NCBI GenBank assembly: GCA_973895155.1
Contig: OZ316892.1
Span: forward strand, 21,205,619-21,269,618
Reading direction: 5' to 3'
Length of the DNA: 64,000 nucleotides
Origin: Marsupella aquatica
Lineage: Eukaryota > Plantae > Marchantiophyta
Positions 23,301 to 46,339 of the stretch are shown here, piece by piece (within the stretch, counting starts at the first letter, position 1; every line of letters starts with the position of its first letter). The notes under the pieces were generated by a model, which was not told where the DNA came from, made no database searches, and was given only the letters and a program-made list of their open reading frames with translations. A program made the translations under genes and the position numbers.

Positions 23301-26171
23301 ATTTATTAAAAAATGAGGTAGATCAGAAATTGAAGCTCCCATACTACCCGCCATACTAATCACAATAAATTATATTTGACAAGATGCCAGAAAAAAATGT
23401 CGTAATTTACATGGGTGGCTCTGAAATTTACTGGGTCGATTTCTTCAAAGGGCATTGTTACATAGTAGAAATGTCCATTTTTGCGCAATTTATGGGTGTA
23501 GAACAATAGTTACTTGGACTATCAGAATGCTATGGTAAAATGTTATGGTCCATATGAGCATCAACTTGGGTAGAAGTACACCTTAACACATTTACTTAAA
23601 GTTAGGATGTTCATATGCCTAGTACACATGGCATTTTCATATACTCTTGGTGGTGATGCATGTACACCTAAGTATGGGGAATAATGTCCCCTCAAGTTTC
23701 ACTGGAAATTTTCATATGCAGACAATAAGAATGGATTGATTTCTTGCAATCGTGAATTCTGGATGACAAATAACAGGCCAAAAAATATGAACTGTTGCCA
23801 ACAAATCAACTACCAAGCATGTTAACATGATAGCTGTCTTGATTACCTCTCAAACCATCAAACCTCATTGACTGTGTAAAGAGATTCAGGATGGCTTTAC
23901 AAGACATCAGGGCCCATTTCCTTTGGAGATTAAATCTGGACCATAAAATGGACAATTTATATTTTTTGAAGTGTCTCTAAATTCTATGTTTTAAACCCTA
24001 AACTATAGGGGATCAGAGATGTAGCAGATCAGAGACATTATTTCAAATTTGTACTGTCTCACAGTCTGCGGTGTTGAATTCTAAACTATAATACAAGGTT
24101 GCGCCCTTTTATACCGTGGTCATCATTCAAATATAGAGTGTCCAAAAAAAGATTCCAGCAAAAGAGGAAGGAGTAAATAAAAGATAATAAAGTTTAGTGT
24201 GAATGAAAGGGGAAGGAACACGCAAAAAGGAAACAGTGAAATGAGACCATGAAAAAGGGAAATGATTAGTAAATAAGCCCATGCAAGCACAAGGATCAAT
24301 GTAGATCCCTCTACTTTCCATCAATGCATAAGTGAGAACAAGATGTTGTTTTCAATGCAAGTCAAAAAATGTGCTATGTATCTTCCATAGTTTTGTGATA
24401 AGTATCAAAAACTATAATACACTATGGCACCAATTTATACCATGGTAGTCTTTCATAATTGCCGGGCCATTTTGGGTGAAAAAATTCAAAACCAGAAAAA
24501 ATTGAACCAATAAAACCAAAAAAACTCAAGTGGAAACTCAAGCCGTCACTTGGATTGCAGTGCCGCAAAGTCAACACCAAGCCGCTGCAAGTCGCGCCCA
24601 CCCCGCCCCCCGGGCGGCCAGCCCTGCCCATGCTGACTGGCTGGCTGGCTTGGGGCAGGGCTGGCTGGCACTGCCCTCTGCCTCCCAGGCCCCCTTTTGC
24701 CTCCCCACCTTGCGGCCCCTCCTCCCGACTCCCTCCTGCCTCCCAACCCCGCTCTCCCCTTTTGCCCCGACTCCCCCTCCTTGCACTCCCCCACTCAACC
24801 CTAAAACCCTGCCTCGATGACCCACCCGATCCCCGCTCTCGCCCTTGCCTGGACTTGGTCTTGCCCTTGCCTGGACTCAGTCTCGCCCTTGGACTCTGTC
24901 TTGCGTGTTGGACTCGGACTCATGCCTAGACCGAGGACCAGGTCCCTACTGGGTTTTTTTGTCCTCGCGCATGGAGGCCGGCCTGAACAAAATACAACAA
25001 TCCTCTGCCCTAACTCATCTCCAAAATTATTGGAGTTTTGTCAGTTAACAACATATTTTACTTGACAACACCTTTTACTAACTATGTCTCATTACTTATC
25101 CACATATTTCAATTGGCGTAACCACATCTTTGACATAATGTCATCTTTTTTATACTTAACAACATTTTTTATGCCACAGTATTCTACCGATTAATAACAT
25201 CTTTTATGCCATGACATCTTTTACACAATGATATATTTTTACTTAACGACATCTTTTATGGAAAATTATACGCACAGGTATTGAGCTATTAACTTCTATA
25301 ATACAAGGATGCGCCTATTTTGCCATGGTCGTCATTCAAATTTGCAGGGCACAAAAAACAAGAAATCTGGTAGAAGGAAGGAACACAACTACATTATCAG
25401 GACTTTTTACGTGTTACATGAAGACATTAAGCCCGACGTCTCCTTGCTGCTAAAGAAAGGCGACATACTCGACGTGAATGACGGCATGTTTTGTATGAAG
25501 TAACAAAGGTTACAGTTTACATCTTCCAAAACTACGTTACATACGTCAGTCCATACTACGTTACATATTAATGTCGTAAATAAAGACGTTATTCTGGACG
25601 CAGATTGAACAGGGAAATCAGCTGATAACATCGTTTAAAACGACGTTAATTTCAGATTACGTAGTTTGTGACTTTGTTAATGATGAGTCTGTCCAGGACG
25701 TATGAGTAGTTAGTCGTGTGAGGCTTGGTAAAAATGGTGTTAACGAGAACGTTTGAAAATAGTACCAAGAATGGAGAGACGTGAATGGAGTGCCGTTTGT
25801 GGTAAACATTAATCTTGTATGGAACATCCTTCCAGGCTACCTTAGTTGGGTGGGCTTTAGGTTTAGGTTCATATACACACGGAATACACATAAATAGACA
25901 TATGAAGTCCGGAATGCCACTATAAATGGGTGGCGTCAAAAGTTTGTGCCAAAAATGTACAAAATGCAGGTGGACGTCCACCTAGTCATGCATGGTATAC
26001 CCTAATGCCGCTGAGAGCGGCTCCTATCACGTCCAGACCTGCGAACAGAAATACGTGGCGGTGCCTCCGACTGTTTGCCTCGGGGCCGCAACTCGTACCG
26101 AAGTGGATCCTCGTCTGAACTACTGCTACCAGACACCAACTCCACAGCTCCCTTGCCTCTACTCCTAGGGA

Positions 26172-28206
26172 CTACATCTCTAGTGCCACTGTGTCCCCTA
26201 GTGGTATCCCTCTCGACACGGCTCCTCTTCCTCTCTCTATGTCTCTCCCTCCCCCCCCTCTCTCTTTCCCTCCCTCTTCTCTCTCTCTCTCTCTCCGTCG
26301 TCTATGGCTGGTATGACCCCTATCAGTCTCCACTGGAGGGGAGAGGTTAGAAGATGACCGGCCCTGTGTACCTAAACTGCCCTCCTGCCCACAGTCTACT
26401 AAGGCCTCCTCCTGCGTATCAGGCTCCTCCCCTCCATGATCTGCCTCCTCATCTTCCGCAATGGGTCGTGCCACTAACCCCTCTGGAGGACTCCAATCCT
26501 CCTGGATATGACATAAGGGATCAGTTTACCTCCTGCAAATAGTGGATGCAAAACCTAGTATAGAAGGAACCTAACCTGACTATGTAACTTACCACTGGGT
26601 GGTCCTCCGGGACTGAGTCTAGCTTAGCCCATAGGGCCGCCGGGCCATAGCATTTTGAATAGAGCCGCTCCTGCTCACTTGGCTCGGCGTTAGCTCCAAA
26701 CTTGCGTTTCTGCAGGAAATTGGAGAACGTCGTCACCATCGTCGTTAACTACAATGTACCTAACGATGTTTTATAATTAACGTCGTCCAAGACAAGGTAT
26801 ATAGTGAAACTTCAATATTAACGATGTAGAAAAGACGTTAATTAAATGTAACGTCGCGAGAGACGACATTAGGTAGGATGAACGTATGGGGTCTAGACGT
26901 TAAATTTAGAACTTGCGACGTTAGAGGAGAAAAACGACGTTAATTCAATGTTCTCACCGCAGCGGCCGAAGCATGAACAAGTTGTGCTTTGAAGAGGGTG
27001 GGGGACTTACATAGGTTGCAAGGAAGCCTCGCCATCCTCCCTGGCCCAAAATTTGGTCACACGCAGGCGGCCATTTGATTTGCGGGCTGCAGCAGCTTTG
27101 TCCCCCATGTGCACTCGCTTGCCTATTGGGGTGTCAGGTGCTGCTTCCAACTCAGCCACGATCAACTTGAAGTCGGCGTCGCTCATTCCTTCTGGTTTCA
27201 GGTATTGCTCTGTCCTTGGGCATCTCATTTTTCGAACCTTGTTTCTCCATCGAAACCTCCGATCTGCAAGGTAGCCTACGATCTTTTGTCTGATGTGCCT
27301 ATAGTCTATTTCACGGCCGTTCCTAAACCCAGCTTGCACATCGTTCAGGAGGAGCTGAAACTTCTTTGGGTTCTGCGCGAGATCCTTCCAAGTTGTCCAA
27401 CCAGGACAGTGCTTGGCACAACACGTCTGCACTCGATTTGTGAGGGCCTTCTCATCCAGAACATCCGGCCTAGCATCAAACGCATCCAAGGTGATGGTTG
27501 GGAGTTTGTCTCGACTCACAGCAGTAGTTACCGGTTGCGCAGGAGAAGGTTGTCGCTTCTTGTGGGAGTGACGTTCACGCTGAGGTGAGTACCTCTCTCT
27601 TCTGTCTGCCCTTGCATCTCCCTCTGTTCTTCTTCTTTTGTATGTACCTCTACTGTGTGGATCTGCATCTCTATACTCCTTCCCTTTCCCCTTCCGTCTT
27701 CTCTCATCAAGGCTGCTATTGCTGTTGTGTGTTCTATCACGATGCCTCCTCCGCCTGCGAGAGTCCCGATCCTGATCAGGCTGGAATCTGTCATGTGCTA
27801 CCCGGACCACACTCTTGATTGGGGTCCCACTAGGTGCCTGAGAATCAGGCTGCATTCCATTGAAGGCAGGATCGTCCCACCCATCATCTAGTAGGGACGG
27901 GAAGGAGTTCAGAGCATCGATCGAAGGCCCCCCATCCTCCCCCAAGAGCGTTGCATTCTCAGTTTCCACATAATCATCGAGGGTAGGAGCATTGGCCTCT
28001 ATATTTTCCAGGTACTCCAGAAACTGAGACTCCTTGCTTCCTTTTCCTCCCAAGAACTTCCAACTCTGGTTGAAAGCATGTATCAGCGAATGTGTCGATT
28101 GCATAGCTTTACACACCTTTTCTAACTCCCCTGGATCATCCATAGCCACCAAGTCTGCATCAAAATCTCCACTGGAAGGGAGATAGCCTGGATGAGCCAT
28201 AGTCAT
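26172..28206 (-). pseudogene. TnpA-like (En/Spm Ptta/Transposase_24-like) gene of the outer element; exons ~28206-27011, 26709-26593, ~26533-26172; apparent frameshifts
   Basis: 399-aa ORF with TWKDL...IVGYLADRRFRWRNKV...KPEGMSDADF...AAAARKS, typical of CACTA TnpA proteins. LGQGGWRGFLATY|GTAAGT lies in a shifted frame near 27050. A spliced exon KRKFGANAEPSEQER... follows. Confidence 0.6.
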
Positions 28207-28621
28207 TCACTGTTAAGATAGGAGGTCGAGAGGGGGAGAGGGGAAGTGTTGAATGTTGAATGTGAGTCACATTCAAGTCACTTCCCGATGTTTTGCTAAA
28301 GGAAAACAGCCGTAGCCCACGAACCTTGGAGACCCGCCGTTACCCTAATTTAACGTCATTAATCACAACGTTAACCAGGAGTGTAGGGTTTAGCGGCGAC
28401 GTTACATATAATTACGTCATACCTAACGACGTTAACTTATTAAGTACGTCGTACATTATTACGTAAACTAAATTCGGCAACCTCCCCACAACCTAAAAAA
28501 CGACGTTAATTTTAGGGGAACGTCGTGTGGATGGACGTTAGTTTGGTTAACGTAGCGGGATACGTTTATGCTTGGGGTTTAATATGTTGTGGGGGCCTTT
28601 GTAAATTTGATCACAGGGGAC

Positions 28622-30156
28622 ATGGCAACCTATGCATCGGACCATGATGGGGGCAGGCATCATCGGCATAGATACCATCATCATCATAGGGGGACGTATG
28701 ATGAGTCGGATAGGCGAAGGGATGACTCGTGTGACGATGACGATGAGCATGGCGGTAGTTCTCACCGACATAGACACCATCATCGGCATAGGGGGAGTTC
28801 AGCTTCATCGGGCTATAGGAGCAATGACGAGCGGCAGAGGAGGAGGGATGACGAGGGAGGGAGGAGGAGGGATGACTCATCCTATGAGGACCATGGTGGG
28901 GGTACTTACACCCGACGCAGAGATGACCATCATCATAGGGGGAGGGACGACCTGTCGGACCGGGAGAGAGATTACTCACCAGACATGTATGATCGATCTA
29001 GGTGTCACCAATCCAGGCGTCGTCGACGCAGACATGGTTCCGACGGTAGGAGAGGCCGGAGCCCCCATCATGCTGATGGATTTGGAGAGGCCATGGCTGC
29101 TCGTCAGGGGATTGGGCCAATTCGCAAGATGCCTTGCCCTTGCAGACGATGCAAGGGTGTTGTCTTACACGAGAGGACCACTGTCCTTAGCCATTTAGGG
29201 ATCCATGGTCGTTACACCCCCCCGACCCGAGAGGTAATACAATTTTGTTGGGTATTGCAATTATGATAACATCTCCTTCCTTGAATTGTTTTTTGATTGT
29301 CATATTCTGAACTTGTTTTGGTGAACATGTGGAACAGATTCCTATTGTAGTGCGATCTTCGCCTGTGGACCGCTTGAGAGACATTGCATATCGTGCACTC
29401 GCACCACTCGTCCATCCATCCGATTTGCCAGCCACATTGAGGGAGATAGACCGTGTATTTCGGAGGAGGAGGAGAGTGTTTAGGATGCACCCTATTGAGA
29501 GGGGAGTAGTGGTGACCACTAGACCCCGATCGATTGAGTCCCGTCCACCTAGGATTGTTCCACCCCGATGCCCTTTTCTTGATGCATCGGTGTCCCGGGC
29601 ACCGAGACAGTTGCGAGGGAGAGCCTTGGACATCTTAAAGGACTCCTTCCCAGCCCAGTTTGGACTCCCTATGGACCTCCCGCTTCGGGAGCCTATTATA
29701 GTTTGGGACCGCCCATGGGTCATCCTCCCCTCCACATTGGGGACTCATGTAGGACTTGGAGTATTTGCTCTTGTGGATATCGTGGTCCCTATCGGTTGTG
29801 CACCCGATGATTTGCCTCAGTTGTTTCCATTCTATGGGCCCAAGTATTCGGCGGCAAGATGGCGCATCTTGTCCCGACAGTGCCCAACCTTTAGTCGATA
29901 TGGCATGTCACTAAAGTTGGACCCTAGGTATGCTCAGATTGATGGTTACCCACCTCGCACGGGGAACTTGGCGGGTTACATCAATAGCACTATTGGTTCT
30001 CGGCGTTCAGGGTTTAGGCCAAATGCTGAGTGGCACGAGTTCCATGACCAGAGTCACCCTCGTTTGCCTGTAGCATGCACGCATTACATCTTGACACATG
30101 CTACCCGCACCATTAGAGCAGGGGAAGAGATTCTCGTAGATTATGATTGGCATTGA
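28622..30156 (+). CDS. Putative alternative isoform: Transpos_assoc Zn-binding exon fused to a SET-domain exon; join(28622..29233,29338..30156)
   Basis: Phase-0 donor GAG|GTAATA (29233) and phase-0 acceptor GAACAG|ATT (29338). The exon is open and encodes SET motifs GLGVFALVDI, FYG, IDG...GNLAGYINS...PNAEW and ATRTIRAGEEILVDY, ending at a stop. The SET homology is well supported by motifs; the splicing is inferred. Confidence 0.75.
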
Positions 30157-33100
30157 TGTTTACATGTGTACATGACATATTCATTATGGGGTGACCCTTG
30201 CATTTTTCATTATTGATGTTTCACTGTAAGCTTTATCACGGAAACCCTTTCTCTAATTGTTATTTGTCATTGCATATTGAAAACTCTAGGATGGTGTACA
30301 TATTACTCCCACACCTCACCCATCAATGATGACTACATCAGCCCGTGCCTTTCACGTACGTGCCACCTTACATTTCTCAGACGAGGAGGATGCTGAGGGT
30401 CAGCCCCTTGACCATGATGAGATGGACGATGAGGATGAGGAGTACCATGATGCATATGATGGAGAGTTGGATGATGATGGAGAGTTGGATGATGATGGAG
30501 AGTTGGATGATGATGTTGACGATGAGGGAGATGAGGGAGATGAGGGAGATGACCCTATCCTTGAAGAAGATGCCTTTGCCCACCTTGTTGACGTTCACTT
30601 TGGACCTCATGCACCTGACGCCGAGCACCCTATCATGGAAGTGGATCAAGAAGATTGGGATCACTTGGAGACTGAAGCCAGAACACCACTATTTGAGGGA
30701 TCTCCATCCTCATGGTAAGGTTGTCCTAAAATTATCACAACTCTGGAATTTCATCCAGTGAATATTGGGCAGTCTAAATTGTAGTGCCAGGCATGCCATC
30801 TAGCTACTTGGACTAACTGCAAAAAGTCTGGTGTTTGTGGTTTTGCAAATCCAGGTTGGGTGCAACTTTGTTGATGTTGAATTTGCAAGGAGTTTTCAAT
30901 GGTTCGGATGTCCATACAGATGCACTCTTCCAATTGTTCCACGGCAAACTCTTGCCCCAACCAAACACTCTCCCTGGATGTGTGAGGGAGGCTAAGAAGT
31001 TGTTAGCCTCAATTGGATTGGCTTTAGAGACTATCCACATGTGCCCAGGTGGGTGCATCTTGTATAGAGGGGTGTACAAGGATCACACTCACTTCCCAGA
31101 GGAGCACTGTAGGCTTCCACGGTATCGACCAGACACCATTGGAGACAAGATTGCAGAAAAGGTAATGTTTTCCTCAACGCAATGTGAGAACAAGAAAGTC
31201 CAACTTTTAACGTTGCATTCTTTCAAACAACGTCGTACATGACTATGTAATTGATTACTTTACGTCGTCCATCTCACTTTATGTCTTTCCACCTGACGTT
31301 TTTTTGTTTTTACATCGTATGGGATGCAATAACTAACGTCGCATGGTACATTAGGGTATGAAACGTCGTCCTTTACGATGTTAGTTTTAATAATACGTAG
31401 TGTGGAAGGACGTTTATTGTGATTGTCGTCAAATTGACGACGTTACATTGGATCTGGCAGGTTTGTTGTTATTTCCCAATCACTCCCCGACTTCAGCATC
31501 TCTACCGACGAAAGCACTTATCCACACTACAGACTTGGCATGTGGAGAACAAATCCCCACCAGGGATAATGCAATACCACCAAGATAGTCCAGCGTGGAA
31601 GCCACTAGAAGAAAACCACCCATTCTGAGACCCTCCCCTATGTGACTTGTGCAAGACCTTCATAAATATGCGACTCCAAGTTTGTGGGTGTCATGTTAGT
31701 TACATCATACCAACTAAGTTTTGGTGAGGCTGTGGGAAGTCATGCTTACAACTTTATCCAATGTCGCTATTGTAACACTGGTAAGTAAGAAATAGGTAAG
31801 TTATGTTAGTTACTCCACAATAGTGCATTGGACATCATTTTTTAAAATTCCGTCAGCATGCATACCCCATTAGCCAATTTCGGATGCCAATCCCTAATGT
31901 GCAACTCCCGGTGCAACTACATATTGCACACTCATGGTTCAATAAGTCCAAATCTAAATGGGTATAAATATGGGGGTTTTCATCAAAATGGTGGGTACTT
32001 TCACTTATAATGTGGGGTCATACCTGACTATATTTGGCCTTGTTCTTGACCAAAATGCACTCTCCCCACATTGAACTTTTTGCTAAGTCATTTGCATTTG
32101 TTCTTTTATGTCCAAACCAACCTGTTTGCTAAGTCACTCGATGGCTGCCCACATGTGAGGGGTACTACTTTCCCTCAGGGTCAGTGTACCTTGGAGGTTG
32201 GTTTTGCGAGAGAAATTGGGGCCCGTGCCCTAAGTGTTCAGGGTCAGTGTGCCGCGGAGGTTGGTTTTGCGAGGGAAATTGGGAGTCGACGACCTTCATT
32301 CCAGCTGCACTCTTTGCGAACTTCCTGTAGGGGGCAATGAAAGTGTTTGAGCGCGATTGGACTTTAGGGTGCAAATGTGTTTAGGATTGGCCTGCTACGA
32401 GCGTCAGTGTGGAGGTCTGCCAATCAGTTTTGAGGGGAGTCCATTGTCGCTTTTCAACCTGCTGGTGAGCTAAGCTGCTATTGAGTTTCAAGTGAGAGCT
32501 GCCGACTTGGAGTTGAGCTCTGCGAGGTCGAGCTTGAGTGTACATCTGCTCGACATACTTTTGGGAGCTCACAGTTGGCAGGAGGGCCAAGTCATTGCAC
32601 AAAAAGTTGCAGCCGTGACAGTGCAAGCTAGGTAGGCGGAGGCTGGTTACTACAAGCAAGGCGGAGGATCACTGCGAGCTAGGCGGAGGAATGCTACACT
32701 GCTTCACATTGTCAAGAGACATGCTGCATCGGCCCAAGTAAGGTTGCGTTGACCTATCTATCTCTATGTCACCTCTATGTCTGTAAGGTCCTAACCGATA
32801 GTGTGCTTAGTGAGGTCCTGCTTTAAGCTACATTTGTGCGATTGATTGTGTCCTGAGAAGCTTAACCATCACATGGGGGAATGGTAGCGAGAAAGGAGGG
32901 GTGGAGCCTGATGGTCGCCAATATTCAAACAGGGTCGCCTTGCTCGATTTGCAAACTTTCACTTAGGACGTAGATTAAAGCATTAGACTATGGGCTTCAA
33001 TCGCTATGGAAAAGTAGGTTTTTGCTGCGTGGCCCTTCAACAGTTGAGTGGTGTGAGGGCGTGCAAAGACAACGAGAGCTTTGGAAAGTAACTGTCATTC

Positions 33101-34716
33101 AGCCCGTCGTCCGAGTTAAGTTGCTGGTTTTGCAGTTTTACAGTAGTGCTTCATGCGCAATTCATGATACGGGCAGTCAGCGGGCTGCGACAATGTAGAG
33201 CCTGCGACAGCATTTTGTGAGTGTTGCAAGGTGGGTTTTCTTTGTTTGCTCTTCTATTCTTGGCTGTCAGTCGATTATTCACCCCATCTCGTAGTGCATT
33301 TTCTTTTGTCTTCGTCTTTGGAATCCCTGCTGGGACACGGTCGTAGTAAGCGGAAGAGGTGATCAGGTCCTGGGTTTATCTTTTCTTGAGGTTTGTGTAA
33401 GAGCCGGGATCTGTATTTTGGGACAAAGTAGTGTATGGGAGCTGCAGGGCATCTTTTTAGGGTATGAGATTTTGGTCATGGTACGTAGTGGAATAAGATG
33501 GATTTGCGAACTGGGAGCTTGGATTTACAGAGTTAGGCCTTTGAAAACATATTTTTCTTCTTCATCATTTCTTCCCCTCGTGTCACTATGCACCAAATAA
33601 TCCACGGAGAAATCGTTGTATTCTATAAGGAAGTGAGGATTGGTGACAATATTGTGATACTTTAGGACGTGTTTGTGAACGTTCGCTGGTGTAGCGATCA
33701 CCCGGGAATATGTGTTTTATAGCTGGAGTTTTCGATTCTCCAACTAAGTTGCTGATCCTTCCTCGACCTGCTTCATCTTGCAAAAGATTTGCTTCTAGCT
33801 CATTGATGAGGCGGTAATCGTAGTAGGCGTGACTATCGAATAATTTCAGGGCTCTGAAGAGTCACCCGTGGCAGAGAACAATGATTTTGAACATCTTGAG
33901 AAAGAGTTTCAAGCAAGATCCTTTGGCTTTGCCTTGGGTGATAGCGAACACATGTGTGTAGGCTTCCACACAACGGCGTTCCATGATCTTGGAACCCACT
34001 TGCTTTCTGGAAGTGACTATCCAGAACCTGGGGTCCTCCGGTGGTAGCCTTATCCCAAGGTTTTTGATGTTGCTTCAAAGTTGCTTTGAGCTGTCGTCTC
34101 AGTATCCATTTTCGCATCTTGGATTCGATAGTACTGAAGAGAGTGCCTGAGTTTCAATTGTCCTAAGAGATATCTCAATTCTCTAAGACGTCCGATTGTC
34201 AAGTACAATGTCAAGACTGAGCTGCCAAGATGCAGGTTCATGCATGAACACTCTGTATTTACCTTACCTCGAATATGAGATCCTGGCATTAACGAATGAC
34301 GACAATGTGTTTGCGTGTCCTTTCTGCCCTGTCCCAGCTCAGAATGACTACTCGTAAAGAGCTGCAAAGGCAAAATTGTTTTCGTGTTCTTCAGATTGGC
34401 ATGCAACAGTTTTCTCAACAATAATTTAACTATGGGGTGCAACCACAATGAAGTGCACGAGGGCGGAGGGAATCACAGAAATTCACCGGGGGCAGCTGCA
34501 TTGACTTCTTGATCCATCGCATGCCTTGCTTGCTTCTGATGATCAAGGGTTGTTTTTTGCGTAGGCCAAGGGCCGCATTTTTGAGGACGCACACATGCGA
34601 GTTGGCCCTTATTGTATTGAGTAGTATTTGACAGGTTCCCTGTTGAAATTAGATCTGATCTTGGTTTTTGTTGTCGTTCTTTTCCTTCTCTCTATACTAA
34701 TGCTTTTGTTTGCCAG

Positions 34717-34829
34717 GACGTCACAGTGATGGGGTCGTTTGATAATTGGATGCGAGGTGAATCCTTGTCTCCAGAGAGTACAGGAACATTCACAAATTTC
34801 TCCGCTACACTCAAATTGCGGCCAGGCAG
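34717..34829 (+). pseudogene. Captured exon of a CBM48 starch-targeting protein (PTST1-like)
   Basis: TTGCCAG|DVTVMGSFDNWMRGESLSPESTGTFTNFSATLKLRPGR|GTGGGT closely resembles the PTST1 CBM48 segment (VMGSFDGW...LSPEY...FSTTL.LRPGR). No flanking PTST1 exons were found. Confidence 0.8.
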
Positions 34830-35307
34830 GTGGGTGGCTTTTCTTTCAGTCAACCATGAAGTAGGTCGTGTGTTTTTTCTCTTGAAGTTGGCAATTTTAT
34901 GCTTCTCGATTCGTTCAACAGTGCGATGAGAAGTGAGGTTACTCCAGTATCTATGTGCACTACGGACCCTCCTGTCCGAATAGTTCACTATTGAATTGGT
35001 CCTGGATAGATTCGACTATTCAGTTCCCAATTCCAAAGATTCCATCCACTGCCGGTAGATTTTATCCATCCGGCAGATTGTAGAGTCGCTAGCAGAAATA
35101 GTCGTACTGTACTAACTAGGAAGCATGTGAAGAAGTAGTGTTCACAACCTCGTACTCTCGAATTACAACGTTGGAGGTGAATTGTAACTCTCCGTCCATC
35201 TGTACTATGTTTTTAGATCGTAGCAGTTGACCCGAGTGTTTGTCCTTAACGCAGTTACCAGACAGATGCTCTTGTGTTGGTCTGATTCGGAGTTGAGAAT
35301 GCAGCAG

Positions 35308-35640
35308 GTCGAAACTGGTGCAAATTTATGGATCAAAGGATACCAGGTTTGGAGTCGAGGCAATTCGAGGGCTCTTACACTCCAAGGTGTTGATGAATTA
35401 CCGAATGCTGAGAAGGTTACCATGGGCCCAAAGGTGTAGAAGACATCTGCTTAACGTAATTATTGTCCGTCCCTCATAAAATTATGTCTAGGTGTGTCGT
35501 AGGTGCGTGACATCCTTGTACCAGTCACTCATTGCTTTGTGAATCTGTAACTCTTTTCCAAGGTCAAAATGTGGTTACAGAGCAAAGTTTTGGTTATCGT
35601 GAAGTTAAGAAGGATGGTGTGACGGTGGCAAAGGCCTTTT
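35308..35640 (+). pseudogene. Captured two-exon fragment of mitochondrial chaperonin-60 (HSP60), degenerate
   Basis: YGSKDTRFGVEA/(frameshift)RALTLQGVDELPNAEKVTMGPK|intron|GQNVVTEQSFGYREVKKDGVTVAKAF matches the HSP60 N-terminus YAAKDIRFGVEARALMLQGV..LADAVKVTMGPKGRNVVIEQS.G.PKVTKDGVTVAK. Confidence 0.85.
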
Positions 35641-36444
35641 GCAAACTTGCCTATGGATCCTTGTCCTCCTATTTCACCTCACTGAAATTCTCGTTGTTCT
35701 TTCTTCTTTAACGTATAGATGAGTGCTATGTTGGAGGACGGAAAGAATCTTTACAATGAAGACGCTCCGTTAATCTTATTTGGTTGCTGCTCTAGAGCCT
35801 TTTCATCCAAATTAATGAAAACATGACTACCTCTGTTTAGTATATTTGTCCAAACACGCTGCAGGATTGGAAGCTCGGTTACTATGGTGAGAGAGACACC
35901 ACGGTCCCCCAGGTGCTCTTGATTGCTTCCGTCTGTCGTCTCCCCCTCTGTAGTTATAGCATAGTGTTGTGAATCAGTGCAGCAATGATGTGAGAAAATT
36001 ATTGGTGTCACGTTGATGGGTGGGCGGCAGTGGGATAATCGATTAGGCACCGAAGGAACGAAATGAAAGAATGCCGTAAGGGCGCAATCGGATCTCTCTC
36101 ACTCTCTCTTTCAACGCCAGGGGTCCAGGATCTTTGCATGCGACCATAACTATACCCAGAACTGTATGATCCAAGGGCCGCCAGAATGTTGTACAATGAT
36201 GGTGGACCACCTGGTGCTGTGGTTGACGAAGAAAAGAACGTGCCCTGCTTAGACACTCTTCGCGCACACAGCCCTTTTGCCATCACAGGTTGGTCTAGTT
36301 GTGCAATTCTGCAAAAATTTCAGACAACAAATGCGGTCCTTGCCGAACACGATGCTCAACAGGATGGTGGAAGTTGCAAGAGTCTCCTAGAAGTAGTGGA
36401 AGGCATGAAGCTTCAAAGCATTCATAGGATTGACAAACCGGTCT

Positions 36445-36680
36445 AGCTGTATGCACACTAATGTAGTGTATAACCAAGCTGTACGCACACTAATGTAGTG
36501 TATAACCAAGCTGTAGATATTTCTAAAGGAAACTGTGGCCCAAATGCTAATCCCTTGACTTCTGGAGGTCACCTGTCTACAAAGCTGTACGCACACTAAT
36601 GTAGTGTATAACCAAGCTGTAGATATTTCTAAAGGAAAATGTGGCCCAAAATGCTAATCCCTTGACTTCTGGAGGTCAGG
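36445..36680. repeat. Local tandem/direct duplications within the nested element
   Basis: AGCTGTA.GCACACTAATGTAGTGTATAACCAAGCTGTA occurs three times. GATATTTCTAAAGGAAA...CTGGAGGTCA occurs twice. Confidence 0.85.
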
Positions 36681-37269
36681 AGATCTTATTTTGGTTGTTA
36701 TAGCCAGCCGCATATTATTCCTTTTTTGATGTGAATTTTTACATTCCTGTAATCTGCCTATTCAGCTTGTCTTTCTTCAATCTTGGTGTATTTTACGATG
36801 GATGTAATTGTTTCTCCCAAAGAGTTCTCCTTCAGATATCTTGTCTGTCTGAAATCTTTTACTTCCATGCCGGCTTTGTAAATTCTTCACCCCCATGGGT
36901 CTTGTCGTTTCGGAATTTGGGGGCTTCCATATGCTTGACTATTCAGCTCTTAGTGCAGATGGTTTTCTCTTGACCATCAGCATTTGGCCAAAGGGTGTCT
37001 TTGCAATCACAGTAGATACGTGTACAGTCTTGAATCAGAGTCAATGCGTTTTGGTGCCTGACTAAAACATTGTTGATGCAGAAAAAGAGAGGAGGTTCGC
37101 CACTTGCTACAAGAATCACCGCAGTCGCTTGATGATCAAATGAATGATGCAATGCAAGATGGCGGGATTCCTGGGGATCCTAATATGATCCTGCAGTGAG
37201 TTTGTGTGACATGAATAGTTCAATGTGGCACTGAAATTGTGATTGTATTTTCATATTGGAATGTTGCAG

Positions 37270-40200
37270 AACCACAGAATTTTCAAAGAAACGAAAGGAG
37301 TATGCAAGAAGGGTGTCCAACACTATCTCTGGGCGTGTGCGTCGGAGTGAAAGGTTGAGCAAGAAGGTGGTACCTACAATGGCAGAATGTGGAGATGACA
37401 TGGATGCTGCACAGGTGGGTGCAGACACTAGACAAGAAGATGCAGATGATGAGTATTTTCCAGAGGAAATGGATGAGGATGGGGGTTATGAAGATGAATA
37501 CATTGCAGAGCAGCCCCAAAAGAAACAGGTAAGTAGTTTTCCCAACAAGGTTTTGAGTTAAAAACTCTTATTTGGAGGTTTCATATGTTCAGTACTACAC
37601 ATATGTACCTTGCTTAGTTCCTGACATTGTAGTTGGTGATGTGATGCAGCGTCCTGCCAGTTCTGTTTTGCCTTCAAAGCCTGTGCATGCACCATACCAG
37701 CAGGGGGGGCTGACCTTTGATCAAGGTTGGCAAGGTGGTAGTAGTGGTAGATCCCAGGCTGGTGCCCAATACTATGGCAGGGGGCAAGCTCTAGGTTATG
37801 CCCATGGTAGAGGCAGAGCAGGTCCAAACCCACAGTCTCGTGGGTTTGGACGTCCACCTCAACCATGGGGATGTGAGTATATATCTATATGCCAGTTCTT
37901 TGTGAAGGCATGACACTCCTGAATTTCAGACTGCATATCAATTTTTGACATTGTTTGGGATGTATTGGATTCAGACAACATGAAATTTTGTCCACCTACC
38001 ATTGCATGCAGATTCTGCCCAACCTGATTGGGCAAATGCTAGTAATGATCAGTTCCAATGTCCACAAGGACAAACATGGGTTGAACCAGGTTGGGAGGAT
38101 GGTGGTGGGTCGTGGAATGAACAAGGTTGGGAAGGTGGTGAAGGTAATTGGCAAGGATATCAAAATACAGTACCTACAAACGTTGGAAGAGGGGCAGGTA
38201 ATGTCTGATCTTGTCAGCAATGGAAGAACCCATTATATCTGGAGTCCATTCACGTGGGGGGGGATTCTGCACATGTATAATGATAGAAAATGTATGTGTG
38301 TAGGTTGGACAGTCGAACCATCGACTCAAGTATTCACTAATGCCCCTATGCAGATGCAGCACGGAAGGGGGACAGGTATGTCGGTGAATGTTTAGTTGTT
38401 TTCCTACAGTTTGTACTTAGTTTTCAGTACATATGTTTGCACACACATACCTAGAAAGTGACATCATTCGGCCCCTGTACTAGGCTGGACAGGTGGTCCA
38501 GGGTCGCAACAATTTCAGAGTGCAGTCCCTGCACAGGCATCTACAGGCAGAGCTACAGGTATGTATGTTTGAAGAATTCTTCTTGAAGTGAAGCATTGAA
38601 TGTTGCCGTCATCCATTCTGCTGTATGTAGTTCTCAAGCATGAATGGCATTGTATTTTCCCAGGTGGCTTCAGAACCCCAGGTAGGGTGAATGAAGGGGT
38701 GGCCAATACAACGCCCAGTACTACCGAGAGCAGTGCACGAGGGGAGGTGACAAAGAAAGGGAACGTAAAGTTGAATGAGAGACAATGGGTGGATGCTGAG
38801 TGTCCTCGCAAGAACCGATGGCATGCTAATTTGAAAGCTGAAGTATTGCGTTGGTTAGATGTGAGTGTTATTAATTTTAAAAAACAGCATCCAAAAGATT
38901 GGAAGACTGTATGTGAAAATGTTGCTGGCAAATGGAATTATGTGGGCAGTGATGATGGCGTGGACATAGGTTGCCTAGAGAGTACAGCAGGTAAAATCAT
39001 CAAGCAAGAGAGGTGGAGAATGCATAAGGCTTGGAAGGAAGGTGGGGAGAAGCCAGATATGCCTCCACCAGCCAGTTGTGATGATAAAGTGTGGGCAAGG
39101 TTAGTAGCTTATTTTGTAACAGATGCTTCAAAAAAGAAGAGTTCACAGATGACCGAGGCCAGGTTGAGTGTTCAGAACCCTAATCTGACAGGAAGGACCG
39201 GCACTGCACCGACAGCTAAACGTTTGGTAAGAATGAATGGCCTAGCTATGTAATTTATGCTACACTATGTACTGTTTTTTAGTGTAAACCCATACATGTA
39301 AACTTTGTTTTTTAGTGTACATTCCCTGAATATTGATCGATAACTTGTGTTTGCCATGCATGTGCAGAAACCCCAATTGGGGCAAAGCCCTTCAAAAGAA
39401 GAGTTGAGGGCCAAAATTGTGAACACCCGAGCTCAAGAGGGTGTATCTGAATCCTCCAAGCATGTAAGTTATATGAGTTCTGATTGGTAATTGAATGACC
39501 TGCGTTGAATTTCAGGTGTACACTGTATATAACATTGATTGTGCATATATTGCCCAACATTTCATATGGAGTGATTGAACCTATACCCATGTGTCATGTA
39601 GGGAGGTGGATCTTTACTTACAGAGATAAGTGGTCGTTTGAAGGCTGTCGAAACATGTCTTCCAGAGATCAATGAACGTTTGAATTCATTGACTGACTTG
39701 TTCCATGTGAACTTCAAGACATTAATGGAAGCTGTTGTGTCGGTGAGAGATAAAATTGATTCCAATTCTGCAGGAGTTCCACCATCACCACTTGAGGTGG
39801 CAAAGTCGATGCACTCTTCTGGCATGCCAACGACATGTAGGCTTGAAGGTAAGGCCTTTACAACTGTGTGGGATATGATTATTAAATGTATAGTTTGAAT
39901 TGACATTGTTTGTTGAATGTGTTATTTTTAGTAACATATATTGTGGTTGTTGTGTCCATAGAGAATAAGACAGGTGCTACAGAGAAGAAATATGAGAACC
40001 TGGCAAATACTCGCTGTAATTTAGAGGCAACAAAGTTGCAGTTTGTACAAGCAACTTGTTTGACAGAGGGCAGTCAACCATGTTTGGATAAGGATGACAT
40101 TGGCAAGGGAGTGGATGATATCAATGTTGGGGCAAATGAGGATATCAGCAAGCATGACAAGGATACCATTGAGCCAGATTCATGCTATGTAGATCTTGAC

Positions 40201-40758
40201 TCCATTGCAGAGATAAATGATTTGCAGAATGTATCATTCTCAATGATAGGTGTGCCTCTTGTTGAGATAAATCCAACCAAAGAGTTAGTTGGTATGACAC
40301 TCCCAGGTGATGAACCTGCTACTGTGACAGTCCTAATAGAGGAACCTACTGAGCCTAGCTTCACTACTGTGAAGAGAGGAAGCATGCGCACACGAAGCAA
40401 GTCTGCTGGTGGGAGCAAAGCCACGTCAAAGGTTTCATACAAACCTCCAAGAACAGTGCTGGCAGAAAGATCTAAAGTGGAAGTGGGGAAAGCACCTAAT
40501 GCTGAGGGACAAAGTGGCTTGTTAGCTATTGATGAGAGTGGAACACGAGTAGGATTTGGCAGAGTGCAGGTTGGTTCCACAACGTTCCATGGCAAGAGGA
40601 TTCCCCCAAGTTATTCAGTAGTGTTAGTCACATTACTAGTGAAACCTAAAGTTGTCCTTCCCATTCCAAACACAAATGATGATCCTCCTCAAAAGACACT
40701 TGGAGATGCTGCAGGTTCTTTGGTATTATGGCCAAGCAAGTTCATAGAGGATCCATAA
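37270..40758 (+). CDS. Multi-exon TnpA-like protein of the nested CACTA (Transposase_24-like core plus a C-terminal Tnp1/En/Spm-like domain); exact start and integrity uncertain
   Basis: Acidic and G/Q/W-rich N-terminal exons with GT-AG boundaries. Core ERWRMHKAW...PPPASCDDKVWARLVAYF...KKSSQMTEAR...TGRTG (38663-39226). C-terminal GRVQVGSTTFHGKRIP...VVLV...LPIP...TLGDA.GSLVLWP (to 40758). Confidence 0.7.
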
Positions 40759-43700
40759 CAATGTCATGCCATTATTTGTTTGTAGTGTGAGTCATGTCAT
40801 GTAGATTTTAGATGTCAAGAAGCAGTACAAGAATCATGTCCTCTTGGAGATTCATAGTATCATGCATGTGCTTTCAGTTATCTCATCCTGCAGTCATCAA
40901 TTATGAGTTCCTGTTTTGTCTGAATTACATTGATCACATTGTAAACTATTCCATTGGAATTTAAATGATCTTCATTTTTTAGCAAGATTGTGATTGTGTT
41001 TAATTCTTATGAATGTTTTATGTAGGATCTGCTTATATGATGCTTTGTTTCATGTGGATGTCATTCATGCTATGTTCATTTCTTGTATTCAATGTGTTAT
41101 ATTTCTAAAGTTAGAACATCAGTTTCTATGTATTGTAATGTGGAGTGCTCTCTCTCCTTATGAACTGTCCCTCTCTGTTCATTAGTCATGGTTATAACTT
41201 GCATGTGAACCTTATTAGTTATAAACATGAGTATATAGAGTCCCAAATGGTTTTGTTGTGTGACGCGGGCCAGGGTCTCCATTGGTCTCTCCTGTGACAC
41301 TAAATGGTCACACGCTAGTCGTTGTTGAATGCGGGTAAGTCATGTATGTGACTTACTATGTGACTCGCTGAAGTCATATTGCAGTCACGTAGAAACAAGG
41401 CTAGACTCCACAATAAAGTCACAGATCAGTCACAAATGGGTATCAAGCAAGTTGCAAAGCCCAGTATCAATAGTGACTTCCATTTTTTGGTCTCAACTTT
41501 TGCAACTCCAAGGGTCACAGCGTGGGTCAAGTCACGTTGAGTCACAATGAAGTCACATGAGCCAAAATGAGTCACATATTGCGGTCTCAGTTCACCTCGG
41601 ATTCTTCTAGTGAGCACATTGATGCCACTTGGCCAAATTTTTCCCAGGAGCCAAGAAATGTTCGTTTGGGGTTGGCAATCGATGGAGTGAACCCATATAA
41701 ACAACGACGGAAGCCTAAGTCCATCTGGCCTGTTCTTTTGATAAATCAAAACATCCCTCCATGGTTGGCAATGAAGAAGGGTCATGTGCTTCTATTAGCT
41801 ATAATTCCTGGACCCAAGGCCTGTAAGAATCCTGATATCTGTTTGGCTCCAGCTTATGAAGAGCTACATAATCTATGGGAGGTTGGAGCAGTGACAACAG
41901 ATGTCACTCGTGAAGCAGGCAATGGTAGGACCTTCAATATGAGGGTGATGATCACTCATTGCACCACAGATGGTCCAGGTAATTCATTGGGCAACCCAAT
42001 GACTATTGTTTGTACAATGTCATGTACAATGCAAGTGTTGGGGTTATTTGTGGTCTGAACATGGTTCAATGAAATGGCAGGTATGGGGACAATATCTGGC
42101 CTGAAGGTGGCAGGTTTTTCAGCTTGCCCTTCATGTGGCCCAGAGTTGCGTGGGAGGTACTCAAGACTACTGCACAAAACCACATATGAGGGCAGTAGGG
42201 TCCGGTTGGCAATGGATGACCACTTGCGACAAAACACAACACATTGGGCAGAGACTGAAGTGCGGCCATGTCCTAATGGCCCTTCAGCTGAAGGAAAAAT
42301 TCAAATGGCAGAGAAGGTGGAAGCAAAGTTACTAAAACCCAAGGATTGTGGAGTAAACCGACGCTCAGCTATGTGGGACTTGCCTTATTGGAGGGTAAGT
42401 GATAGAAGTGCATGGTTCCTTTACAGCAAATTAGACCAATAAAATTCTTAATTTAGAGATTGCAACTGATTCAATATGTTATTTCAATTTCCAGAGACTC
42501 CAGGTTCGATGGTTGTTGGACCCCATGCACATTGAAGTGAATGTTGCTAAGAACTTGGTGAAGCACATTTATGGGACGAATGACACTCGTGGAGTCCGAG
42601 AGGATGCTGAGAGGGTTGGAGTAGTGAAGAGTTGTTGGATAACACGTACTGGGGAGAAACCTCCTGGTCCTTGGATTTTGCCAAGAGAGGTTTTGAAGGA
42701 CATGAATGGGATGATAAGCGAGATGAAGTTCCCTAGCCATTACGGAGCTGGTTTTCGTGGGTGCACTACAAGGAATGATCACATACCCCCAATAGGGTTG
42801 AAGTCTCATGATTATCACAAGTTGATACAGCATGTGCTACCAACAGTCTTGCGTTGTTGTGATGATTCCCGGGAGCGTCGTTTACTCCGTCTGACTATAT
42901 ATGAGATGTGCTCCATTTTTAGGTATGATAATGTACCCTCTCTTCCATTGCTCTCTTGCAAGTTCTTGTTACACCTGAAGGAGCCATGTAATTCAACAAG
43001 TATTTCAAACTCATTTTTCTATGGCCCTATGTGGATCTGACATACAAAATCTTTGATGGTTTTGAGGAGGAACATAGGTGGGTATGTGCTAAGGAGATAA
43101 AGGAGTCTGAGATTCCTTTGATGAGAGAGAGGTCAGCTCGCGTGATGTGCAGTATGGAGAAGGTGTTTCCCCCATGCATATTTGACATGCAATTGCATTT
43201 ACTATGTCACTTGGTGGATGAGGTCGCGATTGCTGGTCCTGTCCATGCACGTTGGATGTATTGGGTAGAGCGCTTCATGAAAGTGCTCAAGTCCATGGTG
43301 CGTCAACCAGCTCGACCAGAGGGAAGTATGGCAACGGGGTATATCATGTCGGAGTGCCTCTTTTATTCCGGAGGGATGATAGGGAGTTTGGACACAGAAG
43401 CTCCCACAGCTTGGGAAGAGGCACAAGATGATGACAATGGTGGGTTGCGTTTGATGGGTGCATCAAAAAATCGTTCACTACATGACAACATACTTCGCCT
43501 ACAGATCCACAATTATGTGTTGGGAAATCGCCCAGAGATGTCTCAGTGGAGGGAGTTGCATAGGTACATATATGCAACTCTATATAACTGTTAATCTAAC
43601 AGTAGACGTTGTTCTACATTCTATGTGTGTAGAAGTTAGAGTGGGTTCAAGGAGCACTTCTTTGGATTGTGCAATATTCTCATGGATTCATACATTTTTT

Positions 43701-44829
43701 GCAGTGCATTCTTGGAGCAGCAACCGATAGTTGCACAACGGTATGCATTATTTCGCGTATGGGCATTGGAGCGCATGGATAGGCTCCTTGCAGAGCATGG
43801 ACCCTTATCCATTCCCATTGATGTACAGAACATCATTAGGGGACCAGGGTTGTGGGCAACGACCCATACACACATGTATGAGTCAGGGCACCACTTTCGC
43901 ACTTGGAGGACAGATCACATGAAGAAGAGTACATGTAACTCAGGAGTGTTCATGTTGACAGACCCAGGTGATGTTGAGATTCCCTATTGTGGCACTATAT
44001 TGGATATTTTAGACGTTCACTTTGGGTCATTTACTACTATTGTGTTAGAGGTGCGGTGGCACAAATCCATCATGTCACCTCCACATAGAGCCACCATGGT
44101 GAAAGATGAGTGTGGGTTCTATCGGGTAGACACGACTCGTGTAGCACCATCCGGGACTGAGGTTAGTGACACTATAGTATTTCCTAGCCAGGTGGATCAG
44201 TGTATTATGGTTCCGATGCACACTATGAGAGGATGGTCCATCGTCATTCCCATCTTCCCACGACGGAGGAAGGGTTTGATGGCATCAGTAATTGTAGATG
44301 ATATGGATCCATGACCATAAATATATTCAGTGCATGTATATATTCGTTATGGCCACCTTCATGTGGGTTTGTAGCATCTGTGGGTAACGTCGTTGTATGA
44401 CTATTATGTCCGATAGACCAATGTATCTTCAAACTACGTCGTATCAGGCAGACGTTAATTCCAATTAACGTCGTTTTATTGAGCCTTCAACGACGTTAAT
44501 TTAGCCACGACCCCGTTTACGTTACTCCACACGACGTTGATTCTCCACTTAAAACGATGTTAAACTAACTTATGTCGTTTTAGGGTACGTATTAAACCAA
44601 AGACGTCGTGTATTGCAACGTTACTATATCCGCGCGACGTTAATGACAGTGGTGACATTAATTGGCACATGCATTCAAAATGAAAAACATGAGGGAGTCT
44701 TTATTCAGTTTCAGTATGATATAGAGATACAAAGGTCCTACAAAGCACATTGCATGTCCACCACAAAGCGACTATAACCTAGCCGAATCACTAAACTGCC
44801 TCATCCATTGACATCCAGATTGTTGCTAC

Positions 44830-45390
44830 TTAAGGAGTTCCTTCACCAGACCAGTAGTACTCCTCATCTGCCTTCCTTCTTTTGTAAGAATCACGCCTCT
44901 GCCTCTGGTTCCATTTCTTCCGGACGACCTCTTCCCCAGCCTTTAGCCTTTCAGCCTCAACCTCAGTTGCACAACTTTCCTTGTAATCATACAAGACAAT
45001 GTGAAGCTCAGTCGGAGACAGCTCACATTTGGGCAATGTAGGTGGATATGCCTCCCCATCATCTGGGTTGGGCGCCTCATCCAACATCTGATCATCACCT
45101 GGATGCAGCAGGAAGTCTCCTGGATCCAACTGTTTGTTGGCCAGAATTGAGCACTCTACCCAACGGATAGAAATGAAATGAACTGTCTCTACAAAGTGCT
45201 CGATCAATCCATGGTAGTCACTGAAGTGCTCAACAACTTCTTTCCACGTATAGGCCAGCAAGTAGTCTGTTTCCGAGGTACACAACTTCTCAATAACACC
45301 TCCCCGACAAAAGAACCCACGTATAGTCTTGTCCTCTTCACCAAGTGGAAGGAAGCAACAATGCACATCTTTGAAGAACTTGCGCACCAT
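44830..45390 (-). CDS. Unknown 186-aa intronless accessory ORF inside the outer CACTA element
   Basis: ATG-initiated, protein-like composition (globular N-half, acidic linker, basic helical C-terminus RKKWNQRQRRDSYKRRK resembling an NLS). It sits between motif clusters, convergent with the transposase. No family recognised. Confidence 0.55.
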   Translation of the reverse strand: MVRKFFKDVHCCFLPLGEEDKTIRGFFCRGGVIEKLCTSETDYLLAYTWKEVVEHFSDYHGLIEHFVETVHFISIRWVECSILANKQLDPGDFLLHPGDDQMLDEAPNPDDGEAYPPTLPKCELSPTELHIVLYDYKESCATEVEAERLKAGEEVVRKKWNQRQRRDSYKRRKADEEYYWSGEGTP

Positions 45391-46339
45391 GATTGAACAC
45401 TGAGTCTAGATCCCACGCTGCAATTTCTCTGTACTCAGGAAGAGTGCATTCTCCAAAAATCACAAATGCAAGCCTACTTTGGTCTCAGCACTCTTAAACC
45501 AAAATCCTCCCGTAGAAAACCCAAGCTATACTCGAGTCAGCATGGACTACTCCTCATTCAAGTCGTCCACACCGATGTACTCAACGTCTAACATGGCTTG
45601 ATTCAATCGGAACGTCCTACAGAGCAACGTTACCACTTTTACGTCTCCCTCCACGACGTAAACATTGACGTCGTTATACCCTAAACACATTACGTCCTCT
45701 AATACGTCGTTAATATTGAACGACGACCAAAACGACGTTTAGGACAGCTCATCCAGAGACGTTAATTTTAAACGTGTTTCCAGCGACGTTAAAATGGGGC
45801 AATCGGCGCTTAGATTTCTCCGACGTCGCCGTTACGTCGGACGTAGTTATAAACGTAGTCATGGAAGTCGTTAATTATATTAACGACGATTATGAGGAGG
45901 TATTGTTTGCATCCGACGCAACAAAATCTAGTTGTGGAATATAAATAAATAAATTTTAGTTTAGTATGAATGAAAAAGAGTCACGCCAATGTCCAAGTAG
46001 GAGGAATCAAATGGGATGTCACTAACACAATGCACAAGGATAAGGAGAAAATATTGTACATACTCAATAAGGTGTAGATACTCAATAGAGTGAGATAGTG
46101 CATAGTTTAGTGTAATATTCGTAGGAGTTAAATTTTGGATACTATTTTAGTCAATAAGGGACTGCATACACTACTCAAATAAATCAATAATTCTCCCAAT
46201 ATTTAGGATGATTTTTTTACATTCATTTTTTGTGCCATTTTGAGTGCCAAAAAAAAACAATTATAAGGTCTAAAGACATAGTAAAGATCATGGCACTGGC
46301 GTTGATGGCAAGGTGTTGGGCGAGGGGCACACTTTTACT

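Follow-up and report, generated by a model that had tools for sequence, protein, structure and literature searches.

Does the first intron of a transposase gene in a liverwort transposon encode a second protein, and what might that protein do? The question is raised by a CACTA/EnSpm element of Marsupella aquatica, in a 64,000-nucleotide stretch of contig OZ316892.1 (assembly GCA_973895155.1, positions 21,205,619 to 21,269,618 of the forward strand). This whole stretch is called the window, and positions below are numbered within it. A preliminary description made from the letters alone had placed an exon with SET-domain motifs inside intron 1 of the transposase gene and proposed two products from one locus. 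On balance, we lean towards a reading in which a conserved SET exon within intron 1 is likely joined to an upstream zinc-knuckle exon to form an accessory protein (Zn-SET) that may act on chromatin at cognate copies of the element, and in which a more distal acceptor leads to the transposase.

The outer element has the hallmarks of the EnSpm type, which are CAC..GTG ends and a 3-bp target-site duplication (TSD) (PMC12730594), and it also has an inverted repeat. It begins with CACAACTA at 25384, and the reverse complement of this sequence ends at 45936. The terminus reads CACAA, versus the CACTA or CACTG that is usual in flowering plants. Pfam detects Tnp2 transposase domains in the element (PF02992, E=2.3e-34; PF13960, E=2.7e-30). 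The transposase has 1228 amino acids (aa) encoded by eight exons with GT-AG introns, and its frame has no internal stops once a nested CACTA element is excised. The family is multicopy, with all 30 bins covered by contigs in 4 of 4 sequencing runs. These runs come from two studies, one possibly of the same source as the window, and they are taken to be DNA because introns are covered and the longest contigs reach 15-185 kb.

The 3' part of exon 1 encodes CPCRRC...H...HGRY and ends in a phase-0 donor (GAG/GTAATA). The match of exon 1 to PF13963 lies below the cutoff (E=6.8e-4, 20.2 bits; cutoff 27.7), and the last 48 aa alone give E=5.4e-5. Two phase-0 acceptors follow. The proximal acceptor (GAACAG/) opens the SET exon at 29338, and the distal acceptor (CTCTAG/) leads at 30290 into transposase exon 2 and the 1228-aa Tnp2 frame. 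The splice sites and frames in the window are compatible with two products. Predicted intron 1a, between exon 1 and the SET exon, resembles six other transposase introns (100-299 nucleotides, nt) in size and composition, and read-through of this intron is ruled out by its 104-nt length together with a stop at 29264-29266. On re-checking the sequence, the coordinates first proposed for exon 1, the two acceptors, the SET exon, and exon 2 all agree.

The SET exon encodes the motifs GLGVFA, GNLAGYINS..PNAEW, and IRAGEEILVDY, and ends with TGA at 30156. None of 20000 base shuffles of the exon gave a stop-free frame. The Pfam SET profile matches above its cutoff (E=3.2e-5, 24.7 bits versus 22.4). 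AlphaFold models the SET core with a predicted local distance difference test score (pLDDT) of 94.5 and a predicted template modeling score (pTM) of 0.88 when given an alignment of 58 sequences; an earlier input of 18 sequences gave a pLDDT of 63. Foldseek matches the model to SET8 and LegAS4 with E about 1e-6, and VIA aligns it with SET8 at Z 12.7 and a root mean square deviation of 2.3 A over 123 residues. These results bear out the SET domain of the preliminary description, and the modeled product of 29338-30156 has a SET fold.

SET8, COMPASS Set1, MLL, EZH2, and SET7/9 match the model about equally (VIA Z 11.5-12.7). Because many SET classes are tied and no subfamily stands out, the substrate is not deducible from these matches. 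Among solved structures, the best profile match is LegAS4 (E 8e-7 with the deeper A2 profile), and the shallower A1 profile gave one weak sequence match in the PDB (E=0.98). The protein is like SET8/KMT5A, SET7/9, MLL, EZH2, and LegAS4/RomA in its fold, in the glycines of motif I, in the Asn, and in the C-terminal Tyr. In contrast, it has 16-25% identity to them and lacks a post-SET or cSET tail, and its N-terminal hairpin (WGRxW) and insertions are family-specific. Viral SET structures match at the level of fold only (best E 5e-7, with 8-23% identity among the SET rows), so they do not identify a donor.

Relatives of the SET exon are numerous. A word-indexed protein search found 17 relatives among 1769 candidates, and a profile search found 129 clusters of related proteins at E<=1e-3. 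Sources were looked up for 30 of the 129 clusters. The named ones are Riccia sorocarpa, Calypogeia fissa, a Psilotum transcript, and a Ginkgo gene, and the remaining ones are Logan, ENA, or JGI records. The nearest named relatives belong to the liverwort Calypogeia fissa (47-56%), and among prokaryote genome contigs, 0 of 13 pattern matches encoded a relative. Across 58 aligned SET rows, G141, N229, and E264 are invariant, and G167 (57 rows), Y269 and S217 (56 each), Y188 (55), and N216 (54) are nearly so. The C-terminus is also consistent, because 86 of the 93 matches that reach the end of the SET domain stop no more than 30 residues later. A tree was built from the 63 rows with a full core, excluding 81 partial rows of 144. 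One clade of 46 rows (98/92) contains the window, the family of a metagenome locus designated L001, two Calypogeia rows, the Riccia rows, and protein P0032, and the Psilotum and Ginkgo rows lie in another clade (100/98). With midpoint rooting and without a host SET outgroup, the tree does not show which events came first. The CACTA lineage may occur across bryophytes, with SET relatives that extend to ferns and Ginkgo.

Distant members of the SET family have other N-termini. These are P0060/P0147 and P0083/P0160 from Calypogeia, P0107 from Ginkgo (Gb_21150), and P0095, the Psilotum transcript. The N-termini of P0060 and P0107 are rich in Cys and His, and the tail of P0060 is longer. Such members are possibly domesticated copies or other carriers.

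The arrangement as a whole recurs in L001, which is the one metagenome locus recovered from 60 pattern matches and whose SET exon is 50% identical to that of the window. In L001 the donor is at the same codon and in phase 0, and it is followed by a phase-0 acceptor, the SET stop, and a second phase-0 acceptor that leads into a homologous exon 2, so the compatibility of splice sites and frames is conserved. Intron alignments between the two loci have negative global scores, which were equalled by 2 of 200 shuffles each. For the SET exon, the nonsynonymous divergence (dN) is 0.51 and the synonymous divergence (dS) is 2.8, and for the core they are 0.41 and 2.1. The resulting dN/dS of about 0.2 indicates purifying selection and is rough because dS is near saturation. 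In eight of 174 collected proteins (six of them from Riccia), parts of SET run on into transposase sequence, and one further protein consists of exon 2 alone. Because these eight proteins leave the SET domain at differing points and have exon-2 starts in common, they are taken to reflect errors of gene prediction near a distal acceptor that is itself real. The preliminary description had put forward two checks, a dN/dS below 1 and recurrence of the SET exon within intron 1 of related CACTA elements; both are borne out by the comparison with this distant locus, and the Riccia gene models are consistent with the second. The SET exon is almost certainly selected cargo of the CACTA element.

Sequence comparisons suggest that the Zn-SET isoform, which would use the 29233>29338 splice, is probably made. 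A zinc knuckle and a SET domain occur in one protein in five Riccia gene models (P0035, P0042, P0061, P0071, and P0174) and in P0032, a single-frame Logan open reading frame (ORF). The first ATG of the SET exon in the window is at codon 50, downstream of conserved helices (residues 9-42). Contigs of a diverged subfamily, from runs X2 and X4 of one study, align over the acceptor at 29325-29351 and not in the introns, and in X2 the alignment extends to the SET stop. Contig joints near introns were rejected as splice junctions, because their ends are not GT..AG, and the four runs, which behave as DNA, showed no read spliced across either junction. Of seven candidates for longer proteins bearing the zinc region of exon 1, none reached E<=1, which is weak evidence.

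On the modeled sequence, it is an even question whether the SET protein would be catalytically active. One comparison is with LegAS4 of Legionella, which is an H3K14 methyltransferase. The LegAS4 preprint names six residues of the cofactor cleft or active site, including Tyr159, Asn181, and Tyr220. With a numbering offset worked out in this analysis, these three align to Y188, N216, and Y269. One of the other three aligns to F165, one to R187, and one beyond the end of the SET protein. The ELxF/YDY motif with its catalytic Tyr (defined in PMC3178901) is present as EEILVDY, with V or A at the F/Y position (E264 in 58/58 rows, Y269 in 56/58). The NHS/CxxPN motif is not matched, and the family instead has N-S-x and an insertion before PN (N in 54/58 rows, S in 56/58, and the final N in 58/58). 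The preliminary description had noted NS in place of NH and suggested that catalysis might be altered. The motif does depart from the usual form, but the doubt that it casts is weaker than was thought: the NHS histidine is also absent from the active LegAS4, so NS in the SET exon does not exclude activity.

A possible target lies in the noncoding parts of the element. The sequence ACGACGT, which was first spotted by eye and counted afterwards, has 22 sites in 2535 bp of noncoding intervals of the outer element, and 1000 shuffles gave a mean of 1.36 and a maximum of 6. Elsewhere it occurs once in 43 kb outside the element, and it is absent from the nested element and from the coding regions counted. 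The ratio of observed to expected CpG at the clusters is 1.1-2.1, versus 0.4-0.75 elsewhere. The noncoding parts of L001 contain two ACGACGT sites. The proteins VANC21 and Spm TnpA work through short noncoding motifs and bring about hypomethylation locally (for VANC, PMC10398659).

These features can be assembled into a proposed mechanism. A single promoter upstream of 28622 would most likely drive the transcript. If the proximal acceptor is used and the transcript ends after the SET stop, a 476-aa Zn-SET protein would result, and use of the distal acceptor would remove a 1056-nt intron and yield the 1228-aa transposase. The choice of 3' splice site would in addition limit how much transposase is made, in the way that TnpA/TnpD splicing does in Spm. 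The Zn-SET protein might then bind lysine-bearing proteins of the chromatin at copies of its own element, or methylate them. It could be recruited to the CpG-rich ACGACGT clusters by the common exon-1 domain or by an element-encoded DNA binder, and there it would oppose host silencing. That Zn-SET is an anti-silencing chromatin writer is a tentative suggestion made by analogy, and we consider it somewhat improbable. More doubtful still is the most specific version, in which a bryophyte CACTA lineage splices one zinc-knuckle exon either to the transposase or to a SET enzyme without a post-SET region, and this enzyme writes, at the CpG-rich clusters, a histone mark that shields cognate copies.

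Several points weigh against the proposal. The dN/dS comes from one pair of loci, the window and L001, for which dS is near saturation, and the L001 SET frame has one premature TGA. The Riccia gene models are predictions, and P0032 may derive from an intronless DNA copy. Four close relatives have Met at codon 13, where the window has TTG-Leu (three of these are ORF-start calls), and the L001 SET exon begins with ATG, so the sequences make it possible that SET has a start codon of its own. The clusters could be explained by ordinary TnpA-type binding, which would be enough. With respect to catalysis, the Tyr of motif II is Phe (F165) in this copy, and the family has F in 31 and Y in 27 of 58 rows. 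Tyr-to-Phe changes at the equivalent site shift product specificity towards multiple methylation. Finally, the post-SET region is absent: Tyr269 is followed by 3 residues, and in 56 rows of the family the tail has a median of 7 residues (range 2-28). A review describes the post-SET region as universal in SET methyltransferases, where it closes the substrate channel and shapes the lysine channel and cofactor pocket, and links a very short one to inactive PRDM constructs (PMC3178901). The missing tail, which the preliminary description had not noted, is the main doubt about catalysis and a larger one than the NS motif. It is a speculation that its role is supplied by a partner, by a dimer, or by the exon-1 knuckle.

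Other explanations differ in how they view the SET exon as a gene part. It might be an independent gene nested in intron 1, with its own promoter and start codon and unfused to the zinc exon, as are the separate SET genes of HarbingerS and Plavaka. The ATG codons of the relatives and of L001 fit this idea, as does the alternation of Arabidopsis EnSpm families between spliced and split-gene layouts. However, codon 13 reads TTG in the window, where ATG first appears at codon 50, intron 1a has the short length typical of this element's introns, the acceptor and its phase are conserved in L001, and databases hold single proteins with both zinc knuckle and SET; we therefore regard a nested gene as unlikely. 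A second idea makes SET a cassette exon, in which splicing from an internal donor would give one Zn-SET-transposase fusion. Although the eight database proteins run from SET to transposase and there is a phase-0 GT at 30136, this donor is weak (CTC/GTAGAT) and would remove Tyr269, gene models exit SET at many points, and the stop just after SET is conserved, so a cassette exon is very unlikely. CACTAs capture gene pieces, and such Pack-CACTA elements lend some plausibility to the case that the preliminary description had raised against itself, in which this copy captured the SET segment as a piece of host sequence that has since drifted neutrally. That case is already refuted by the dN/dS of about 0.2, by the number of related clusters (129), and by the matching placement of SET in distant families, as in the L001 layout, and its probability is negligible.

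Two further explanations accept the Zn-SET protein and differ as to its activity. The isoform may be made as a pseudo-enzyme that acts as a reader, scaffold, or decoy, binding histone tails or host silencing factors without methylation. The lack of a post-SET tail, which shapes the lysine channel and cofactor pocket, is in keeping with this, and so are the NS in 56 of 58 rows and the frequent Phe at the motif-II Tyr. In contrast, the cofactor glycines, Asn216, and Tyr269 hardly vary even though the family is very diverged, and LegAS4 is active without the His. We consider a pseudo-enzyme rather unlikely. Alternatively, Zn-SET might be an active methyltransferase of a nonhistone target, such as its own transposase or a TnpA-like partner, and tune transposition rather than chromatin. 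Zn-SET and the transposase would have exon 1 in common, a histone-reading domain is absent, and the tied structural matches include SET7/9, which has nonhistone substrates, whereas LegAS4, which tops the profile matches to solved structures, methylates histone H3. We consider this reading quite improbable and prefer a Zn-SET accessory protein with a possible action on chromatin.

The state of this particular copy was also reassessed. The preliminary description had called the transposase broken and had pointed out the intact SET frame beside it. The transposase is indeed interrupted, but only by the nested 10,010-bp CACTA, and its frame is otherwise free of stops over 1228 aa. This copy of the outer CACTA is disabled by a single insertion, so an uninterrupted SET frame does not in itself speak for selection in this copy. 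The empty-site joint 31599>41613 is found in contigs of 4 of 4 runs. The nested CACTA contains a Ptta/TnpA-like ORF at 38600-39250 (PF03004, E=1.6e-4, below the cutoff) and no match to a transposase. Over its 3' half (about 36900-41570), the summed contig depth is several-fold above that of the outer element in all four runs, which suggests that it belongs to an abundant non-autonomous family. Two further ORFs of the outer element, ORF A and ORF C, have no Pfam match, and BLASTP gives no similarity between ORF A and the nested Ptta ORF. ORF A is possibly a TnpA-like DNA-binding accessory gene of the outer element and may encode the binder of its motif. The outer CACTA is flanked at 25125-25245 and 46365-47100 by a degenerate repeat family (ACATCTT-type units; families D1-D3), and the sequence looks as if the element had been inserted into an older degenerate repeat. 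Feature coordinates are collected in Table 1.

Table 1. Features of the outer CACTA/EnSpm element and the nested CACTA, in window positions (TIR, terminal inverted repeat)
Feature	Position	Strand	Description
Outer CACTA/EnSpm element	25384..45936	.	~10.5 kb minus the nested insertion; imperfect TIR beginning CACAACTA; 3-bp TSD GAA at both flanks
ACGACGT(T/A/C) sites (22), noncoding	25640..45740	.	25640; 26727-26934; 28426-28520 (upstream of exon 1); 31230-31437 (intron 3); 44387-44603; 45653-45732
ORF A, divergent, multi-exon	26593..28206	-	Probable frameshift near 27075
Exon 1	28622..29233	+	204 codons; H/R/D-rich low-complexity tail, then CxCxxC..H zinc knuckle (about 29135-29215); phase-0 donor
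Predicted intron 1a	29234..29337	+	104 nt; GC 0.32; GT..AG
SET terminal exon	29338..30156	+	272 codons and TGA; N-terminal helices aa 9-42; disordered linker; folded SET core aa ~85-272
Spacer after SET stop	30157..30289	+	133 nt; AT-rich; ends in second phase-0 acceptor
Transposase exon 2 (acidic)	30290..30714	+	Phase-2 donor
Transposase exon 3	30855-31161	+	
Transposase exon 4, 5' part	31461-31602	+	
Nested CACTA	31603..41612	.	10,010 bp; TIR CACTAGAAGA; TSD AGC; interrupts transposase exon 4
Rest of transposase	41616..44314	+	Exon 4 41616-41978; exon 5 42081-42394; exon 6 42495-42922; exon 7 43078-43563; exon 8 43705-44314; Transposase_21 and DUF4218
ORF C, convergent	44830..45600	-	Several premature stops in 5' part

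Elsewhere in the window, a long inverted repeat at 15108-16853 has arms of about 550 bp that are 87-94% complementary, as in a foldback or an element like a miniature inverted-repeat transposable element. Two parts of a 423-aa ORF at 19152-20420 (minus strand) match lipocalin (PF08212, E=7.5e-16) and are separated by a long insert. Host-looking ORFs are present at 3665-4234 (plus), 47829-48485 (plus), and 54183-56219 (minus), the last being a frame of 679 codons. Judged by their motifs, the other two look like a Rab-type GTPase and a germin-like protein.

The element can be compared with several known systems. Maize En/Spm and Arabidopsis ENSPM3/7 likewise have CACTA termini, a 3-bp TSD, a Tnp2 transposase, and short noncoding motifs. 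In Spm, alternative splicing yields both TnpA and TnpD (PMC13547354; bioRxiv 10.64898/2026.08.24.746577), and a single transcription unit that yields transposase and an accessory protein, as in En/Spm and ENSPM3/7, is predicted here. The second product differs, because in those elements it is a helix-turn-helix TnpA and here it would be a zinc-knuckle-SET protein from an exon within intron 1. The term "SET domain" does not occur in the main text of either of these two reports. VANDAL elements with VANC (PMC10398659) similarly have short motifs clustered in internal noncoding regions and an element-encoded accessory protein, for which Zn-SET is the predicted counterpart. However, VANC is not a SET protein, VANDAL is a Mutator-like element, and anti-silencing is demonstrated for VANC and hypothesized here.

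SET domains are known in other DNA transposons. In red algae, Plavaka elements of the EnSpm superfamily carry SET cargo in PAG2 (bioRxiv 10.1101/2025.02.11.637652), so that here, too, SET is long-lived cargo of an EnSpm-superfamily DNA transposon; a function for PAG2 is proposed in that report. In contrast to PAG2, which is a separate gene encoding an adenine methylase-SET fusion in elements of 17-19 kb, the land-plant SET lies as an exon within an intron of the transposase gene. Genes encoding SET proteins like histone methyltransferases are also found in HarbingerS and oomycete MuDR elements (cited in PMC12730594) and in SET-carrying Helitrons (cited in bioRxiv 10.1101/2025.02.11.637652, the Bostrychia preprint). 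Those elements belong to other superfamilies, and their SET sequences are accessory genes rather than exons that share the first exon of a transposase. SETMAR/Metnase also combines SET and transposase coding sequences at one locus, but that fusion with a mariner transposase is domesticated and present in the host as a single copy, whereas the SET exon of this multicopy element has its own stop. The preliminary description knew of no SET isoform in CACTA transposases. SET cargo as such is known, including in the EnSpm lineage of Plavaka, but no description of an intron-nested SET exon in a land-plant CACTA was found in the titles and abstract openings of literature on CACTA/EnSpm and SET domains (including Sphagnum); subscription papers, Repbase, and supplements may hold entries. 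The intron-nested SET exon in a CACTA transposase gene is a real and conserved arrangement that is apparently undescribed.

The family defines a large, well-folded clade of SET domains without a post-SET tail, and one class of Riccia gene models annotated as "SET domain-containing protein" is explained as transposon exons. The anti-silencers VANC and TnpA are DNA binders, and TnpA depends on host demethylases; an element-encoded histone-modifying enzyme, if true, would represent a different mechanism. For the SET cargo of oomycete and red-algal transposons, action on chromatin is only proposed in the respective papers. Because a SET-carrying CACTA family is present in liverworts, the role of transposon SET domains is testable in a plant.

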